39,839 nucleotides of DNA from IMG/VR virus record IMGVR_UViG_3300029825_000021, positions 1-39,839 of that record. One strand, given 5' to 3'. The position numbers and the translations under genes are program-made. Shown here piece by piece: positions 1 through 29,897 of this stretch; the stretch's first letter is position 1, and each line of letters opens with the position of its first letter. Below the pieces are notes generated by a model, which made no database searches, had not been told where the DNA came from, and worked only from the letters and a program-made list of their open reading frames with translations. Source of the stretch: a virus. Taxonomy: Duplodnaviria > Caudoviricetes.

Positions 1-33
1 CCCGCCATAAGCCGAACACACAAAAACGAACAT
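1..33 (-). CDS. 5' start (MFVFVCSAYGG) of the DUF4406/nucleoside-deoxyribosyltransferase-like gene whose body lies at the other end of the window
   Basis: GGAGG RBS then ATG at 33. The peptide resembles the family N-terminus (V/Y-I-C-S-P/A-Y-x-G). The body continues at 39839 (AINYC...PFAPH). Confidence 0.7.
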   Translation of the reverse strand, partial: MFVFVCSAYGG

Positions 34-45
34 AGGCCCCTCCAA

Positions 46-70
46 TAAAATAAGCACCCGTTAAGGTGCT
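46..70 (-). terminator. Probable intrinsic terminator/attenuator in the late leader
   Basis: AGCACC-loop-GGTGCT hairpin followed by TATTTTA on the minus strand. Confidence 0.45.
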
Positions 71-128
71 GGATTGACAAAATGCCCGCCAGTTACGCAT
101 GCCCCGTACTGCCCGGAATGGGCGAGGG

Positions 129-330
129 AGAGGGTATAGGCGCGGCGGTTGACAACTCCCCACGGCTAAAGCCGGGGGATTCCTCCCGAGCCCTAGCGAT
201 GGAATTCCTGCTTCACAAACCGTTGCTGGCCACCCAGTCTTATATAGTCTCCACAGGCTTAAATTCCCGTGTGTCCCACGGTATTTTTAAATGGTTTAGC
301 CCGCGAGTGTTCGCAAGCCTTCCTTTAAAA
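129..330 (-). ncRNA. omegaRNA of TnpB-1; predicted guide CCGCCGCGCCUAUACCCUCU from flank 148-129
   Basis: Located between the tnpB 3' end and the right end, with typical stems (ACCGTGGGACACACGGGAA...). The 5' boundary is approximate. Confidence 0.75.
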
Positions 331-1556
331 TATTGTTCGCAGCGTTTATATCGCGGTCATGTTGTGCTCCACAGCTCGGACAAGTCCATTCCCTTACAGA
401 CAAATCCTTCACGGCAATATTCTTCTCGCCACACGCCCCACACAACTGGCTACTCGGATAGAACTTGTCTATTTTAACAAGCGTTTTCCCATACCAGTCA
501 CATTTGTATTGAAGCTGGCGCGTGAACTCCGACCACGAAACATCGCTGATTGACTTTGCAAGCTTATGATTTTTCACCATGTTTTTTACCTGCAAGTCCT
601 CTATGCAGATTAGATCGTAGTCACGCACTATTTGGGTTGAAAGTTTGTGAAGCGTATCCGTTCGCTGATTGGTGATGTGTTCGTGCAGCCTCGCAGCTTT
701 AATTCTCGCCTTGTTCCTGTTGTTGCTACCCTTTTGTTTTCGGGATAGTTGACGCTGGAGTTTGGCAAGTTTCTTTTGGGATTTAGCGAGGTGTTTGGGG
801 TTCTCAAATTTCTGCCCATCAGAGGTGATGGCAAATTCTTTCAGACCAAGGTCAATTCCGACGAGTGCGCCTGTTGGTTCAAGCGGTTCAATCTCAACGT
901 CTGTACAACACAAAGCCACAAAGTATTTGCCACTTGGGTTTTTACTAACCGTTGCGGATAGAATTCTGCCACGAACCTGCTTTGACACCCTGCATTCTAC
1001 AAAACCAAGCTTAGGCAACTGGATTGCGTTTTCGCTTACCTTAATATTTGTGCCAACGCATTTACTCTTATAACTTTGGCGATTGTTGTGTTTACTTTTG
1101 AATCGCGGATAGCCGGGCTTCTCGCCTTGCTTTACTCTGCGAAAGAAGTTTTGGAACCCGAAATCAAGATTCTGAACCGATGCTTGTAGTGCGGTAGCGT
1201 CTACCTCGCGCAACCATTCTAGTTCACGTTTCATTTGTGTTAGATCAAGCATGCACGCTGCGGCTGAAAGAGTTTTCTTTTCAGATTCATATACCATTGT
1301 GCGCTCCGCGAGATAGTGGTTGTACACATAACGAGCACAGCCAAATGTTTTTTGAATTAAAACCTCTTGCTCTCTTGTTGGATATATACGAAATTTATAG
1401 CTGTATTCCACTATCTCACCTCCTTTGCGATGTTTCTTGATTCTGAATATATTGTTTGATGACTTCAAGTGGCGCTCCACCAACGGTCGAAACAAAATAG
1501 CTGTTCGTCCATAGGGTTGGCAACCTAGTTTTTAATGTTGGGAATTCATTGCGTAA
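149..1556 (-). mobile_element. IS200/IS605-family element (tnpA remnant + tnpB + right end); left end missing
   Basis: Right-end hairpin CCCCCGGCTTTAGCCGTGGGG followed by terminal TCAA at 149-152. Only the 3' part of tnpA is present. No matching left-end hairpin upstream. TTTAT lies immediately 5' of the element (1557-1561). Confidence 0.9.
296..1411 (-). CDS. tnpB: TnpB RNA-guided nuclease (371 aa)
   Basis: YKFRIYPT...[10 protein letters not shown]-terminus. RuvC residues GIDLG / IEDL / HDRDINAA intact. CxxC...CxxC zinc finger. GTG start after AGGAGGTG. Confidence 0.95.
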
Positions 1557-1559
1557 ATA
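1416..1559 (-). pseudogene. tnpA: 3' remnant of IS200-type Y1 transposase TnpA
   Basis: Hand translation [47 protein letters not shown] is a typical TnpA C-terminus with the catalytic Tyr. The HUH half and start are absent. Confidence 0.9.
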
Positions 1560-1645
1560 AAGCCTTTCGGCGTACTATCGCAGGGCGGTTGCCCGCCCCG
1601 CATCAGAAGGAGGTATCCACAACGCCAATGGCGAAAATGGCATAG

Positions 1646-1677
1646 AAAAAGCAGGGGCGTTTCTTTACACTCCTGCT
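1646..1677 (-). terminator. Terminator-like hairpin just downstream of the putative late promoter
   Basis: AGCAGGAGTGT-AAAGAA-ACGCCCCTGCT followed by TTTT. Confidence 0.55.
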
Positions 1678-1685
1678 ATGTTATC

Positions 1686-1714
1686 ATTATACATTGTCAA
1701 GCGTCTTATTGCAA
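1686..1714 (-). promoter_or_regulatory. Putative late promoter
   Basis: TTGCAA-17 bp-TATAAT, directly downstream of the late-activator gene. Confidence 0.6.
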
Positions 1715-1751: not shown

Positions 1752-2240
1752 CTACCGTTTAGCAATATCGGCCAGCGCATCTATTGCGCACCCCTCTAAA
1801 AGCTTCGCATGCTGCACCGAGAGTCCCACCTTGCTTGCTACCTTCTCCCACCCCAGCTGCCGCTTGAACCGCAAAACGATTATGCGCTGCTGATCTGCGG
1901 GCAGGGCGTTTACGGCGCGGGTTATGGCTCTTTCGGTTTTACGCATCCGAACGAGCGCCCTTTCTGCCTTCCTTATGCGACACAGGTATTTTTCCTTAGC
2001 TGCCAAGAATGCCATCCCCGGATCGGAGCATCCCCGGCATGGCGGTGCATGGCTCAACTCTTGCGCCCCCAGCCTGTCCTCCATGGCTACATACCTATCT
2101 TTGCAATCGGCCAATTCCTCCTCCAACCCTCGGCGCAACTCGGGGATCGTCGCCCAGTACCGCAATCGGCGGCGAACGGCCTTGCGCACCTCTGCGGAAA
2201 AGCCGGTAGGATTAATTGATTCAAGCTCTTTTATCGTCAC
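1752..2240 (-). CDS. RinA/ArpU-like late transcriptional activator (sigma70 region-4-like HTH)
   Basis: C-terminal AVNALPADQQRIIVLRF...WEKVA..VGLS motif; last gene before the late region. Confidence 0.75.
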   Translation of the reverse strand: MTIKELESINPTGFSAEVRKAVRRRLRYWATIPELRRGLEEELADCKDRYVAMEDRLGAQELSHAPPCRGCSDPGMAFLAAKEKYLCRIRKAERALVRMRKTERAITRAVNALPADQQRIIVLRFKRQLGWEKVASKVGLSVQHAKLLEGCAIDALADIAKR

Positions 2241-3642: not shown

Positions 3643-4028
3643 ACTTCCTCCTTTGCTGGCTGCTGGAGCCATTTGAGAATTTCGCCGATCACTTCCTCGA
3701 TAGGTACATCTTCCTTGATAGAAACCCCTATGCTTCCAAATGCGTTGTGGATGTACCAGAATAGCGTCTCTGCCAATCCATCGTCGCTCATTGCCCGCAT
3801 GCGCTGTGCGTTGGTGGGGACATTTGTGTCCTTGCCATCGGCGCGGCGGTTCCAGAGGACTAAAACCTCTTCTTGCCCACTTGGCGATGTCATTTCCGCT
3901 CCACATGTCGGGCACTGGATAATTCCCCACGCATCAATATCGGGAGCCGTGTAAATGGGTTCAACGATTACGGCTTCTCCCCCGCAAAACGGACATTCAC
4001 GCAATGGCTGAAAGTCTTTCCACTGCAT
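3639..4028 (-). CDS. Lar-like (restriction-alleviation family) zinc-finger protein
   Basis: LRECPFCGGEA...CPTCGA...WNRR signature. Confidence 0.7.
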   Translation of the reverse strand: MQWKDFQPLRECPFCGGEAVIVEPIYTAPDIDAWGIIQCPTCGAEMTSPSGQEEVLVLWNRRADGKDTNVPTNAQRMRAMSDDGLAETLFWYIHNAFGSIGVSIKEDVPIEEVIGEILKWLQQPAKEEV

Positions 4029-4506
4029 AATCTACCCCCTTCTCCCGAATCCACCAATAAACAGTAAACGGGCTAATGTCGATATTTTCACACCACTCTG
4101 CAACGCTTTTTGTTTCTCCGTTGATAGTGAGTAGTTTTGTGTTCCTTCGATTGCGGCTGTTTTCTTTAGGAGTCACAAACCGGCAGTTGCTCGGCTCATA
4201 ATTCCCGTCATTGTCTATGCGGTCTATTTGCAACCCTGCCCTATAACCATTCGATAGCGCCCACTCCGCAAACACAGCAGCGTCTTGCCACTCGTCGCAA
4301 ATTTCGATTCCGCGCTGTCCGTAATCCTTGTATTTTTTCCTGTTTGGGTTATAGCACCGTTGTTTCATCGAGCACCACACGCTATAAATGCTTGTGTTTG
4401 TAAGTCCGTGCGTTGTTATTTTCGGATTTTTCTTACCCATATGCGCGACGCTTATCTTAGAACGTGTCTGAGCTGAATGCTTAAACCCTTTAGGCCTACC
4501 CGCCAT
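3997..4506 (-). CDS. Free-standing HNH-type endonuclease with NUMOD3 motif and C-terminal HTH
   Basis: KHSAQTRSKIS..HMG (NUMOD3); W.SMKQRC...YG.RGI.IC.EW; QIDRIDNDGNYEPSNCRF...N..N. Confidence 0.8.
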   Translation of the reverse strand: MAGRPKGFKHSAQTRSKISVAHMGKKNPKITTHGLTNTSIYSVWCSMKQRCYNPNRKKYKDYGQRGIEICDEWQDAAVFAEWALSNGYRAGLQIDRIDNDGNYEPSNCRFVTPKENSRNRRNTKLLTINGETKSVAEWCENIDISPFTVYWWIREKGVDYAVERLSAIA

Positions 4507-6852: not shown

Positions 6853-7290
6853 TCATGGCTCGTCCCCGAGCATGTCGCAGGGGATTACGTTGCTTATCCG
6901 CACGTCCACGGATGCCAGCTCCCCGTAATATTTGTTAACGATCATGCTGGCAATCTGCGAATCGTCCTTATACGCCACGCCGTTGAGGCTGTCCGCAATG
7001 ATCTTGGCGATATTATCCGCATCGGGCTTTTTCAGCGGCAGGACTTCATCATGCAGCATGAGCGCCCTTGTTTTCTTTGGCGCCGACTTCGGCGGCTCAA
7101 AGATTGCGTCAATCTCCATCCGCAGGGGCACATCCTCCTTGAAGCGGAATCCGTCGCATTGGCGGAGGTACTCCATTTTCACAAGATTCTCATAGAGCAC
7201 CGTTTGCTCCGGGGTGTATGTGCGGCCTTTCCCCGTCCGGGCGCGGGCCTTGCCCTGCGGCTTGCCGATGATATCAAAGCTAACGGTCAT
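6853..7290 (-). CDS. rusA: RusA Holliday junction resolvase
   Basis: GKPQGKARAR...TYTP; KKPDADNIAK...DSLNG..YKDD. Confidence 0.92.
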   Translation of the reverse strand: MTVSFDIIGKPQGKARARTGKGRTYTPEQTVLYENLVKMEYLRQCDGFRFKEDVPLRMEIDAIFEPPKSAPKKTRALMLHDEVLPLKKPDADNIAKIIADSLNGVAYKDDSQIASMIVNKYYGELASVDVRISNVIPCDMLGDEP

Positions 7291-7391
7291 ATGCCTAAAT
7301 CCTCGCAAATCTGGCGTATTGCAGCCTCGTACTGCTCCGGCGTTAAATCAGGCGGCAATTCTTTTTTACGCCGCTCGTATTCAATCCACAT
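7287..7391 (-). CDS. 34-aa phage protein MWIEYERRKKELPPDLTPEQYEAAIRQICEDLGI (not in ORF track)
   Basis: Fills the dnaB-rusA gap exactly, with overlapping start/stop codons at both ends. Confidence 0.65.
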   Translation of the reverse strand: MWIEYERRKKELPPDLTPEQYEAAIRQICEDLGI

Positions 7392-12326: not shown

Positions 12327-12859
12327 TTCAGGCTCCTTTCTTGGCGTTCCATTTCCTCTTTCATCCGGGCGATTTCGGCGGGCGTGGCCGTGTCTATGCC
12401 CAGCTCCTTTGCCTCCGATATGGCCCCGTCCAGGAGGCGGCTAAACTCATTGCTAGGCATGTCTCGCGTCCGCTTGTATACCAGATAGCAATGAAAACTT
12501 TTACCGCCTTCCTCAACCGTCTTGAATGATTTTGCGTAGTCATAGATTGTGTTCACATCGACCGATACCGGCAGCTTAAACCCGATCACAACGCCATCAT
12601 CATCCCTTGCCAACGTGCCGTATCCCAGCACAAGGTTCCTCTTGACTTCATCGTTGCCCAGCCGCATTGCGGCGGCAATCTCGCCAACCAGAACATGGAA
12701 ATAGGCGTTTGCATCCAGTGACCGCTTCTTTCGGGGCCGCTTGATATCGAGGTCTAGGGGTTCATCCTTGTCAAAGGCCAGTTCCGGGATTTCCCCCAGC
12801 ACCTCGAAAGCAAGTATCTTCCCGGCCATGATTACCGGGTTCTTTACCCGGATGCCCAT
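12323..12859 (-). CDS. NinB/Orf-like recombination protein
   Basis: KKRSLDANAYFHVL...F.RLLDG.I.EAKELGI.T. Confidence 0.75.
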   Translation of the reverse strand: MGIRVKNPVIMAGKILAFEVLGEIPELAFDKDEPLDLDIKRPRKKRSLDANAYFHVLVGEIAAAMRLGNDEVKRNLVLGYGTLARDDDGVVIGFKLPVSVDVNTIYDYAKSFKTVEEGGKSFHCYLVYKRTRDMPSNEFSRLLDGAISEAKELGIDTATPAEIARMKEEMERQERSLK

Positions 12860-13587
12860 TACAGCCTATCTCCGGCTTCTTCGTGGCTGGTGTCCATCCG
12901 GGCCGCTCGGTTGATCTCCTTTACCTCTGCGTTAGCCGTTACCTTTGCGGCCACTTCCTGCAACTCGACAAGCGAAAGGTCGTAAAAGTTTTTCTTGTAC
13001 CTGGCATTAGCCGCCTTGTCCGCAATCGCAAGATTCTGTTTCAGTTCCGCAAGGATGATGCCGCGCAGCCGGTTCACTTCCGGGTTCTCGCTCACGCTGG
13101 GCATGGTGGTTTGGGGTTCCGTCTTGGGCTTGTCCTGCTTCGGGGGCTCGGGGGCCGCATCGTACTTTGTGCGGTCGGCGGCGAAGTAAATATCAGCACC
13201 CACACCCAGCGCCTTTGCCGCAACGGAGATTGCATCGGTGAGGGCCTTCTTAAAGCACTCGTCATCCGTGTACAGGCCCCGATCTTCCTTTGCAACGAAC
13301 ATGGAGCCGCCCGTGCCGGGGATGCCCGCACCCCATTCCTCGCATTCCTTGCAGTACAGCAGGATGTCCACGAATGCGGCTACTGTACCGTCCGCGCCGG
13401 GGCTTAGCTGCTTGTCCACAACCTCATACCGCCAGCCCACGCCACACGGCCCAAACTGCTCTGTAAGCGCCTTTATGCGCCACATGGGGTTGATGTCGGT
13501 CATGCCCTTTAAGCGCCCGCCGCCGATCTTCTTCTGCGCCTCCAGGGGCACCGCCCGAACCTTTTCATAAATGCGAAGATTGCTCAT
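12859..13587 (-). CDS. Sak/Rad52-like single-strand annealing protein
   Basis: TDINPMWRIK.LTE.FGPCG.GW; DECFKKA.TDAISVA.K.LG.GADIY. Confidence 0.8.
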   Translation of the reverse strand: MSNLRIYEKVRAVPLEAQKKIGGGRLKGMTDINPMWRIKALTEQFGPCGVGWRYEVVDKQLSPGADGTVAAFVDILLYCKECEEWGAGIPGTGGSMFVAKEDRGLYTDDECFKKALTDAISVAAKALGVGADIYFAADRTKYDAAPEPPKQDKPKTEPQTTMPSVSENPEVNRLRGIILAELKQNLAIADKAANARYKKNFYDLSLVELQEVAAKVTANAEVKEINRAARMDTSHEEAGDRL

Positions 13588-15312: not shown

Positions 15313-15430
15313 GTGACGCACCCCATGCCTAAAGGCAGGGGCTTCTCGCTCGATAACCCTACTGGATTAAGCATAAACGAGCTATCCCCGTGCGCCCCAC
15401 GGTTCTTTATTTTATTGGACAAGCTTTATA
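15293..15430 (-). ncRNA. omegaRNA of TnpB-2; predicted guide CGAACUUAUCACAGUCAACU
   Basis: ACCGTGGGGCGCACGGGGATAGC...GAAGCCCCTGCCTTTAGGCATGGGG scaffold ending in TCAC; 5' boundary approximate. Confidence 0.75.
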
Positions 15431-16596
15431 CCCTCGTTCCTAATATTTATAGCCGCGTTTAGGTCGCGGTTATGATGCGTACCGCACTCACAGTCCCACT
15501 CTCGGTCTGCAAGTGTAAGCATAGAGTTTATCGCTCCGCAAACAGAACACATTTTGCTTGATGGAAACCATTTGTCTATCTTGATAAATGCTTTGCCTTG
15601 CTCTGCGAGCTTATAGGCCATGAATGTTTTGAACATACCAAAACCGTTATCGTTTGTAGATTTACCAAGCTTTAACGAGCCGGCCATTCCTCGCAGATTA
15701 ATATCCTCAACACAGACAATATCCCACTCGTTTGCGAGCGTTCTACTTTGCTTATGAAGCCAGTCTTTGCGGCAGTTCGCAACTCTTTCGTGCATTACCG
15801 CAATGCGCTTCTTCTGCTTTTTGTAGTTGTTACTACCGCGCACCATGCGGCTAAGTTTGTGTTGTTCCCTGCCCAAGTTTTCTTCAGCTTCTCGGTAGAA
15901 ATGGGGCATGTCCGCTTCTATGCCTTGACTATCAACATAGAAGTGGGGACTGCTGTAATCTAATCCAAGGGCTTTATCTGGGCTTAGGTGGCGTTGCGGA
16001 ATTTCGTGTTCGTATTCGGTAAGAATTGACACGAAATACCTACCGCTCGGCGACAGAGAAATGGTACACGATTTAATTGTGTGGCCTTCTGGAATTTGAC
16101 GATGTTGCTTTACACGCACAAGACCAATTTTGGGCAACTTGATATATTTACCATCAATGCGAATGTTGTTACCTTGGTTATTGGTTGTGTACGAATTCTT
16201 GCCACTATGTTTACTTCTGAATCTTGGAAAGCCAACAGACTTATCTCGAAAGAAGTTATTGTACGCCGTTTGTAGTTGTATTTGCGCATTGGCAAGAGCA
16301 AGGTTATCAATTTCGTAAAGCCACTCGTATTCTAGTTTCCATTGCGAATATGTTTTAGGTTTGTTTGATTTGAGTGCATCTTTGTCGTCTTTGTATTGCT
16401 CGTACAGGCTGATTCGCTCGGCAAGCATATGGTTATAAATGAAGCGCACAGAGCCAAACGCTTTTGCGAAATATTCTTTTTGAGTTTTGTTGGGTTCTAA
16501 TTTAAATTTGTACGCTTTGTTTGGCACTGTATCACCTCCTTTTATTGCTCGCCCTTGACCCCATAACTAAAGTTAGGGGATTGCGGGCGAGATCTG
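15313..16596 (-). mobile_element. IS1341-type (tnpB-only) IS200/IS605 element with both ends; putative TAM TTGAA
   Basis: Left-end hairpin CTCGCCC..CCCCTAACTTTAGTTATGGGG..GGGCGAG (16548-16591). Right-end hairpin at 15321-15341 with terminal TCAC. TTGAA at 16601-16597. Confidence 0.9.
15412..16527 (-). CDS. tnpB: TnpB RNA-guided nuclease (371 aa)
   Basis: KAYKFKLEP...FGSVRFIYN; RuvC GLDYSS / VEDI / HNRDLNAA; CSVC..CEC; AGGAGGTG RBS. Confidence 0.95.
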   Translation of the reverse strand: MPNKAYKFKLEPNKTQKEYFAKAFGSVRFIYNHMLAERISLYEQYKDDKDALKSNKPKTYSQWKLEYEWLYEIDNLALANAQIQLQTAYNNFFRDKSVGFPRFRSKHSGKNSYTTNNQGNNIRIDGKYIKLPKIGLVRVKQHRQIPEGHTIKSCTISLSPSGRYFVSILTEYEHEIPQRHLSPDKALGLDYSSPHFYVDSQGIEADMPHFYREAEENLGREQHKLSRMVRGSNNYKKQKKRIAVMHERVANCRKDWLHKQSRTLANEWDIVCVEDINLRGMAGSLKLGKSTNDNGFGMFKTFMAYKLAEQGKAFIKIDKWFPSSKMCSVCGAINSMLTLADREWDCECGTHHNRDLNAAINIRNEGIKLVQ

Positions 16597-16641
16597 TTCA
16601 ACAAAGCGGATATTGTGGCCGTTCCAGGTTTCGGTTTTCAT
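16597..16641 (-). pseudogene. First 15 codons of a BRO-N-type antirepressor (MKTETWNGHNIRFVE), cut by the IS
   Basis: AAAGGAG RBS + ATG; the E.WNGH.IRFVE start is typical of phage BRO proteins; the frame stops inside the IS left end. Confidence 0.65.
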
Positions 16642-16671: not shown

Positions 16672-16881
16672 CTATTGCGCTACAGAATCGGTAAAAAAAA
16701 TATGCAACGGGTCTTTAATCTCAAGCAGATTTATCATTGCGGAAATCTCCAGATTGCTAAATACGCCTATTTTCATCTTCCTATAGAAGGTTTCGGGCGT
16801 AACACCTAGCTTCTTGGCGACATCTGCCTGTGATAAGCCGCGCGATGCGATTATGCCGCGCAATTCGTTTCTCAAAATCAT
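16672..16881 (-). CDS. Cro-like XRE HTH regulator
   Basis: LRGII..RGLSQADVAKKLGVTPETFYRKM...F...EI; first gene of the lytic operon. Confidence 0.85.
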   Translation of the reverse strand: MILRNELRGIIASRGLSQADVAKKLGVTPETFYRKMKIGVFSNLEISAMINLLEIKDPLHIFFTDSVAQ

Positions 16882-16916
16882 TTAATCACCTCCCGCCTGT
16901 CGCTTTCTATGCTACA

Positions 16917-16946
16917 ATGATAACACGTGCACTTGTAGCCTGTCAA
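16917..16946 (-). promoter_or_regulatory. Early lytic promoter
   Basis: TTGACA-18 bp-TATCAT with an extended -10 TG, upstream of cro. Confidence 0.7.
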
Positions 16947-17000
16947 GCGATTTTCGACACGAAAACCAAAAAATATTTCGTCTGTCATGCGATTCTTGCT

Positions 17001-17630
17001 TGCGCCCCCCTGATTGACATAAGCACATTTGAGATCGCGCAAGCCGCCATTGCAGAACGTGCCCAGCGAAATAGCCACATAAGGACGGATAGAGTATACC
17101 TTTTCACCAGCCTAGTATATTGTGCGGAATGCGGCAACCGGCTTTGCGCTCATACCGTGGATAGCAAATATATATACTACCGCTGCTCTCGATATGATAA
17201 GCTGCATCTATGCACCCATAAAAAGCGCACCAGTGAACTAATGCTAGAGGAATGGCTGTTAGAAAATATATTGTCTCAATTCAGAAAATTCAACGCGCAA
17301 ACAGAGAAAGCCAGGAATGCCCGGCCAGAGTTTGACGCGCCAAAAATAAAGCGGAAGATGGAGAAGCTGAAAGACTTGTACCTAAATGATCTGATTGATC
17401 GGGTGGCATATGAAACGGACTATACCGCACTTCGTGATGAATTGGCGGGGGATAACGATATCCAGCCGCCCCAGCCCGTTGATTTATCCGCGGTGCGCGA
17501 TGCACTAAGCGAATACAAGCTGTTTACAAGAGAAGAACAAAAGGAATTTTGGAGCCGAACGGTCAAAAAGATCATCATCACAAATGACGAGACTATTTCT
17601 GTTATCCCGGTTTCACCATATAAACACTAG
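17001..17630 (+). pseudogene. C-terminal half of a large serine integrase (end of recombinase domain, zinc ribbon, coiled coil)
   Basis: CAPLID..TFE.AQ...YLFTSLVYCAECG...YYRC...C...LKDLYL..LI...Y...VKKIII; no catalytic YxRxS domain and no RBS/start. Confidence 0.85.
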
Positions 17631-29178: not shown

Positions 29179-29195
29179 AACATAAAGGAGTGATT

Positions 29196-29897
29196 ATGAT
29201 GCACAATCGACCCTATGATCTTGCAAGCATGCGCTTTGGCCGTCTATTGGCGGTCGAACGTGTTCAGTCTCTAAATGGCCGCGACCGCTGGCGCTGCCTG
29301 TGTGACTGCGGGAACGAGAAGCTCGTATTAAGCCAGAATCTGCGCAATGGTCATGTGCAGTCATGCGGCTGTCTATCTTCCGAAAAAAAACGCGAAAGAT
29401 TCATCACCTACAATGCAAGCATTGGCAGAGAGATTCACGGCGAAACCTTAACCCGCCTTTACAAGATCTATATTGGCATTAAGTCTCGCTGTTGTGATAA
29501 AAATCACCGCACATTCTCTCAATATGGTGGCCGCGGCATATCCATCTGCGCCGAATGGCTTGATAGTTACATAACTTTCAGAGACTGGTCTATTGCCAAT
29601 GGTTACAGCGATAAATTATCCATCGATAGAATTGACCCGGACGGAGACTATTCACCTCAAAACTGTCGCTGGGCTTCCAGTTCGACGCAAAACTACAATA
29701 AGCGGCGTCTCGCGCGAAACACATCTGGTCACGTCGGCGTTTCTTACAACAAAAAAGAGGGAAAATACGTCGCCTATATTTCAAAAGACCATAAACGTCA
29801 CTGGTTAGGCACTTTTGAAACATACGATTTGGCTGTTGATGCAAGAAAGCGCGCTGAACTCGATTTATGGGGTCAACAGAGCCCTATTTCAAGGTGA
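29196..29897 (+). CDS. HNH-AP2 free-standing homing-type endonuclease
   Basis: G/RFGRL...W.C.CDCG...SCGC; YGGRGI.IC.EW; SIDRID..GDYSP.NCRWA; NTSG..GV...Y.AYI...LG.F....A..AR..AE (AP2). Confidence 0.85.
   Translation: MMHNRPYDLASMRFGRLLAVERVQSLNGRDRWRCLCDCGNEKLVLSQNLRNGHVQSCGCLSSEKKRERFITYNASIGREIHGETLTRLYKIYIGIKSRCCDKNHRTFSQYGGRGISICAEWLDSYITFRDWSIANGYSDKLSIDRIDPDGDYSPQNCRWASSSTQNYNKRRLARNTSGHVGVSYNKKEGKYVAYISKDHKRHWLGTFETYDLAVDARKRAELDLWGQQSPISR

Follow-up and report, generated by a model that had tools for sequence, protein, structure and literature searches.

The tnpB element and its phage setting

The window, by which we mean the whole stretch of 39,839 nucleotides that was analysed, is a near-complete, circularly permuted siphophage-type genome with terminase, portal, capsid, tail, lysin and replication genes. 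In the identical assembly L128 its two ends are separated by 19 bases, and the contigs related to it are uncultured Clostridia-type records. An IS200/IS605 tnpB element occupies positions 149-1556 on the minus strand (Table 1).

Table 1. Features of the element, its flanks and the phage genes discussed in the text
Feature	Position	Strand	Basis or remark
Predicted 16-nt omegaRNA guide (phage right flank)	133..148	-	Directly after TCAA; homologous to element-free alleles except at positions 6-7
IS right end: GAAT guide 182-179, hairpin 178-158 (21 nt), TCAA cleavage site 152-149	149..182	-	Sequence features; architecture as for the IS608 right end in the available text of PMC3201880
Predicted omegaRNA scaffold, overlapping the tnpB 3' end	149..330	-	Co-linear with relatives
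tnpB	296..1411	-	371 aa; RuvC D187/E271/D354, C4 zinc finger, TAM-reading residues A50/M54/A72
tnpA 3' remnant, without HUH	1416..1552	-	Pfam Y1_Tnp 80-121; tblastn with L001 TnpA 97.8% over 46 aa
TTAC common to phage flank and tnpA: putative TAM, left cleavage site and deletion junction	1553..1556	-	Kept in empty alleles and run joints
Phage leader (left flank), contains TTTAT	1557..1649	-	97% over 99 nt (1553-1649) to L081/L125
Sigma70-like promoter after the regulator gene, putative late promoter	1686..1714	-	10/12 match; motif recurs in L081/L129/L234
Phage transcriptional regulator, sigma70 r4-like	1752..2240	-	PHROG 36/248, Pfam
RusA Holliday junction resolvase	6853..7308	-	Pfam and PHROG annotation
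Likely Rad52/Sak-type single-strand annealing protein	12859..13587	-	Lead from Atlas feature matches (0.91-0.95), Rad52_Rad22/SSAP_Sak clusters

The tnpB product scores above the NCBIfam cut-off for IS200_TnpB (NF038281: 543 versus 425 bits) and combines the HTH, OrfB_IS605 and zinc-ribbon domains of that family. The earlier note had described the RuvC residues, the zinc finger, the omegaRNA and the right end as intact. For the protein residues and the right end this description is confirmed: the D/E/D triad aligns with the catalytic positions of ISDra2 TnpB (phmmer E 2e-104), the finger is formed by C324/C327/C344/C347, and the GAAT guide, the hairpin and the TCAA site are all present. The predicted omegaRNA region is co-linear with that of the full-length relatives L001 and L134 and of more distant relatives; it has no Rfam match and its fold is modestly better than those of shuffled sequences (z -1.86). 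A 25-nt segment of it (179-203), present in L001 and L134, lies between short direct repeats and is missing from the copies X1 and X2 and from the distant relatives.

The loss of the left-end hairpin and of the HUH half of tnpA is likewise borne out. No such hairpin lies upstream of the element, the window containing only three end hairpins, two of which belong to a second tnpB element, and no other tnpA was found in the window. The tnpA remnant together with 1553-1556 corresponds to residues 88-133 of L001 TnpA. With neither an intact Y1 TnpA nor a left-end hairpin and its guide tetranucleotide, the element is immobilised in cis. This condition is common: according to the available text of bioRxiv 2023.03.14.532601, most tnpB genes are without a nearby tnpA and about 25% have one, and immobile TnpB is given as the norm, in 89% of clusters, in that of PMC10691335.

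The position of the element downstream of a putative late promoter, proposed in the earlier note, agrees with the promoter-like site at 1714-1686, whose motif is kept behind different upstream genes in L081, L129 and L234; the window holds 5 promoter-like sites versus 2.4±1.7 in shuffled sequences, an excess that is weak when taken alone. A hairpin and a U-rich tract follow the site at about 1675-1645. Hairpins with a T-rich tail, of differing sequence, are seen after the promoter in the window, L081 and L234. The leader region of the empty allele folds strongly (z -4.09; L081 2390-2640 (-), equivalent to window 1-148 plus 1557-1690), the window leader has no Rfam match, and it is possible that the interrupted leader is an attenuator or a small RNA.

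The note had also credited the phage with its own Sak and RusA. The RusA assignment holds, and Sak is a candidate from the Atlas lead, its gene product being labelled exonuclease by PHROG and having no Pfam or PDB match. The phage may be obligately lytic, since its serine integrase gene (16830-17630 (+)) is reduced to the C-terminal part and no CI-like repressor was seen beside the cro-like gene of the window. Two free-standing HNH endonuclease genes occur at 3997-4506 (-) and 29190-29897 (+), the latter within a stretch missing from the related contig L235.

The junction and the origin of the truncation

The earlier note had the tnpA remnant abut TTTAT, with an empty allele formed by TTTAT and the guide match, and had proposed a search of related phages for this site. 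Empty loci were found, three of them with TTAC and not TTTAT immediately before the guide match. The search with the left flank returned one viral locus and five metagenome loci, the latter comprising one filled locus, two empty loci and two chance matches (L126 and L127). The same truncated element is carried by L128, and the element-free L081, L125 and L129 read TTTAT, then TTAC, then the guide match. Furthermore, contigs from three of the four sequencing runs skip exactly 149-1552, joining 148 to 1553. Because TTAC precedes the guide match in these empty alleles too, the tetranucleotide at 1556-1553 is phage as well as tnpA sequence, and the empty allele reconstructed earlier was 4 nt short. 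In a fourth empty locus, L234, the leader is different and TTGC stands in its place, so that TTAC occupies the TAM position in 3/4 empty loci. The element is thus precisely present or absent at a homologous site, as is expected of a homing gene. None of the four empty loci and three run joints had TTTAT immediately next to the guide match. A scan of viral contigs for the matched guide 16-mer gave 43 loci, none of which aligned to the phage flanks or came from this phage group; the regulator-gene search found no relative, and INPHARED phages and PLSDB plasmids held no close copy of the element.

Could the truncation be an assembly artefact, a collapse at TTAC between phage and IS? The junction does fall on a 4-nt repeat, and the filled junction was seen in 0/4 runs, though no run covered 1654-1914, that is, this haplotype. 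Against such a collapse, the independent assembly L128 has an identical junction at both ends, the identical TnpB protein is encoded on three ENA contigs of up to 39,984 bases, and a 4-nt overlap is far below the assembly word length. We regard an artefact as extremely improbable.

Complete elements with 90.4-90.6% nucleotide identity over 149-1556 lie at another site in L001, L002 and L134, and their TnpB proteins have 91-92% amino acid identity to that of the window. An order-level genome search gave TnpB matches at E<=1e-100 in 4/401 genomes, none closer than L134. Closer copies exist on other contigs: X1 differs from 149-1556 by five letters and one 25-nt gap, X2 and X4 run past 1556 into the 5' part of tnpA as loose ends, and the protein P0129, from a 1723-base contig, differs from the window TnpB by T196A only; three of the four listed differences from the closer copy are silent, the other being T196A. 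Since a full-length copy is nearly identical, one residue apart, the truncation must be judged recent from these comparisons, and the intact catalytic residues are no sign of selection after immobilisation. The two left-end-less copies (window and L128) are identical to each other, and the 74 synonymous and 30 non-synonymous codons that separate the window tnpB from that of L001 reflect selection on the mobile family and not on the truncated copy.

In the sequence of events that we propose, an IS200/IS605 tnpA-tnpB element would have inserted after TTAC in the likely late leader of the phage, and everything from the insertion point to the internal TTAC of tnpA would then have been lost. With L001 as a proxy, the loss amounts to about 359 nt and includes the left-end hairpin and a promoter-like sequence (read by eye). 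The likely agent of the deletion is TnpA itself. By the simplest route, a second copy would insert at the internal TTAC, the outer left end and the inner right end would be excised together, and this peel-and-paste event would leave the flank TTAC joined to the tail of tnpA. Alternatives are a mis-cleavage guided by the left end or a plain 4-nt microhomology deletion, and the latter explains the junction too. In L001, the left end and tnpB are separated by 500 nt with a single TTAC, which falls exactly on the breakpoint. A post hoc count with L001 as proxy gave 172 possible 4-nt microhomology pairs whose use would delete the hairpin, and in one of them the left end coincides with the insertion point.

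In the available text on IS608 (PMC3201880), a Helicobacter element, the left-end guide AAAG pairs with a TTAC cleavage and target site, the right end is TCAA as here, insertion takes place 3' of the tetranucleotide, and the donor joint keeps this TTAC, like the window junction; in contrast, a TTAC-to-TTAC internal deletion is not described in that text. Decayed IS605 copies with a truncated tnpA are on record (PMC7290912, in its available part).

The TAM read by the truncated copy

In the case of ISDra2 TnpB, Y52 and S56 read the T at TAM position -1 and K76 reads the G at -3 (available text of PMC10097598; PDB 8H1J/8BF8). The protein resembles the window TnpB in domain order, D/E/D triad and C4 zinc finger, and the omegaRNA of the ISDra2 type, derived from the right end with the flank as guide, corresponds to the one predicted here, whereas left end and HUH part are deleted in the window. 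The three reading residues differ, Y52/S56/K76 versus A50/M54/A72, and TTAC is predicted here versus TTGAT. The A72 residue fits a T at -3 (PMC13639567, as far as its text was available). L001 has Y50/S54 at the two other positions, and the residues that differ between the two proteins form a block at 49-64.

Whether these residues follow the TAM was surveyed among natural relatives. The 160 loci with a TnpB match included 75 with an upstream left-end hairpin, 43 of them distinct, and 37 were readable for both the tetranucleotide and residue 50; the six dropped were three without a candidate, two ambiguous and one without the residue. Left-end guides without a final G went with TTAT in 25/25 cases and guides ending in G with C at -1 in 10/12. 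Tyr at position 50 went with T at -1 in 25/27 relatives and any other residue with C in 10/10 (Fisher P 1.9e-7, on rows that are not independent). On a tree of the C-terminal residues 125-365 the -1 label changes about eight times and is unclustered, and sister pairs switch both together. As the left end and the REC region are physically linked, the covariation need not be causal.

From A50/M54 in the REC region and this covariation, the TAM of the window TnpB is likely TTAC, which agrees with the natural insertion site. The only relative with a Met-type REC and a readable left end is L031 (S50/M54, left-end guide AAAG, TTTAC); the left end of the near-identical parent was not seen. No more A50/M54-type genes with a readable left end were found in the viral contigs, the 244 loci or the 5+401+401 genomes, and three pattern matches in the genome searches were not TnpB. 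The earlier idea that TAM plus guide define the site survives with TTAC, and TTTAT, which the earlier note had taken as the TAM, is not at the TAM position in the natural empty alleles; a different TAM was among the outcomes that the note itself had named as counting against its proposal. The differences between the window tnpB and that of L001 cluster in the REC region (codons 36-81), a 200-nt block being identical, and it seems that recombination has exchanged TAM specificity between these elements as a unit.

It might be objected that the enzyme reads TTAT or TTTAT like the L001 type and landed off-consensus at TTAC, in which case the matched site would go uncut and the element would be an inert passenger. 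L001, L002 and L134, the nearest full elements for which a left end was available, do have the guide AAAA and TTAT, and GstTnpB2, whose TAM is TTTAT, is highly sensitive to TAM changes (available text of bioRxiv 2023.03.14.532601). However, C at -1 occurs in 0/25 of the relatives whose guide lacks a final G, Tyr occurs in 0/10 of the elements with C at -1, and the window TnpB lacks Tyr and is unlike L001 over residues 49-64. We consider this objection unlikely to hold. Some TnpBs tolerate TAM variants (PMC13639567, in its available part). The Geobacillus ISGst2 TnpB2 is alike in that guide and TAM define the donor joint, and differs in its TAM, TTTAT, which is likely not that of the window; the ISGst non-autonomous copies keep both ends, whereas the window copy, without a left end, cannot be peeled (same source, in its available part).

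The natural relatives thus give a testable residue code, in which Tyr/Ser predicts T at -1, and Arg/Asp or Ala,Ser/Met predicts C. It should be of some use for choosing TnpB orthologs with other TAMs, and the locus is a worked example of how the true position of a TAM can be read from natural empty alleles.

Homing potential and other IS605 traces

For the element to act, TnpB and omegaRNA have to be made. Since the promoter-like sequence of the element itself was in the deleted part, expression would depend on read-through from the phage promoter. A functionally silent copy, making little TnpB or omegaRNA or crippled in TAM binding by A50, is suggested by this deletion (the promoter-like sequence of the parent having been read by eye), by the hairpin and U-tract behind the phage promoter, and by ISDra2 Y52A, which abolishes cleavage (available text of PMC10097598). 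We hold silence to be quite unlikely, for A50/M54 is a natural combination, found in 8 of the best 120 homologs, full-length near-identical copies among them. Late phage transcripts, moreover, commonly read through such hairpin and U-tract leaders.

An obstacle to spread lies in the targets. All four empty loci, representing three haplotypes, mismatch the guide at positions 6-7, and L234 does so also at position 14 and lacks TTAC, so that none of these natural alleles offers the full recognition site. Double mismatches at TAM-proximal positions 1-12 abolish cleavage by ISDra2 TnpB (PMC10097598, in its available part), and some TnpBs bind with limited seed demand (available text of bioRxiv 2023.03.14.532601). 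As the guide is mismatched in 4/4 loci by a change of the kind that abolishes ISDra2 TnpB cleavage, the window TnpB likely cannot cut the element-free relatives found. It may be that an empty allele with a perfect match exists outside the sample. The filled allele was seen in the window and L128 only, which form one haplotype, 100% identical over 5 kb; no spread onto divergent haplotypes is seen in these two filled loci, a small sampling. Homology to the empty relatives covers about 99 nt (97%) to the left, an arm absent in L234, and about 420 nt (88.6%) to the right.

Outside the guide, the right flank of the window differs from all the empty relatives at many positions, and for this reason the guide mismatches look like ordinary lineage divergence; the AA allele of the empty loci as an escape mutation is not supported. 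Folds of two empty-allele sequences show a structured leader and no covariation, and do not settle the age order of AA versus GC.

The earlier note had suggested that the element could spread by cutting element-free relatives during co-infection, and this suggestion is not supported, in view of the seed mismatches, the single filled haplotype and the left arm of about 100 nt. Active TnpA-independent homing would mean that a TnpB with a TTAC TAM cuts such relatives and that the element is copied by repair of the Sak/RusA type, the AA alleles being still cut or resistant survivors. Consistent with it are the intact RuvC and the predicted omegaRNA, TTAC at the TAM position in most empty loci, a guide without self-target in the window, filled and empty phages in records with the same habitat label, RusA and a likely Sak in the phage, and the TnpA-independent TnpB gene drive shown in plasmids (available text of PMC11870625). 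The mismatches in 4/4 loci, the divergence of the right flank beyond the guide, the short left arm and the restriction of the filled allele to one haplotype speak against it, and we find such homing doubtful.

A bolder reading, in our judgement also rather doubtful, is that TnpA, by a TAM-to-TAM self-truncation, turned the copy in the late leader into a homing gene that is RNA-guided, cannot revert and reads TTAC as its TAM. It would drive against matched sister phages, and the empty relatives seen would be resistant alleles, while IS605 elements of this phage group would repeatedly make TAM-bounded deletions, as in the lysogeny genes, at the antirepressor start and in the HNH core.

The reading that we favour, and consider probable, is that of an inserted IS605 copy with a recent left truncation, whose TnpB likely reads TTAC, would cut no empty allele other than one of its own lineage that matches exactly, and likely leaves the empty relatives found uncut. 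The element would be stranded, with residual lineage-restricted restorative or homing potential, and not an evolved homing gene.

The homing concept is already in print. A review proposes 'transposon non-restorative homing' with co-infecting phages or plasmids as its targets (PMC13565253, in its available part), with the same logic as the plasmid drive, namely that an IS-free homologous replicon is cut without TnpA; in contrast to that drive, no matched IS-free phage and no sign of spread were found here. The free-standing T4 Seg/Mob homing endonucleases, as cited in the available text of PMC13565253, are also nuclease genes that stand alone between phage genes and could skew inheritance when phages co-infect, as could the window TnpB, but they are old, conserved nucleases with protein recognition, whereas the window copy is the recent remainder of a transposon and is found in one haplotype. 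Our literature search, within the text available, found no demonstration of TnpB homing between phages, and the locus would be a natural case of it if cleavage and spread were shown.

The second tnpB element, at 15313-16596 (-), is without tnpA and has both end hairpins and the D/E/D motifs. From CAAT, the guide of its left end, TGAA is predicted. On the right, its flank agrees in 16/16 positions after ATGAA with the antirepressor start, which is intact in the related phage L233, and the element is for this reason a better homing candidate than 149-1556. Its left flank (16597-16641), with TTGAA at its end, is the start of another gene, whose frame differs from that of the antirepressor on the right side (from 15312 downward), and a TGAA-to-TGAA deletion or a recombination between two copies likely accounts for these flanks.

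In the pairs L001/L233, L002/L231 and L134/L234, a complete relative of the element under study has the holin terminator on one side and the cro-like gene on the other; no integrase or repressor was found in this interval, and the IS may be where lysogeny genes were lost. Finally, a mini element of about 46 nt with a single hairpin interrupts a NUMOD4-type gene in L081 (about 990-1040) and also in L125, the middle of the gene seeming to be missing; in L081 it joins the start of a left end to a right end of the family to which the second element belongs, with 32 nt identical.
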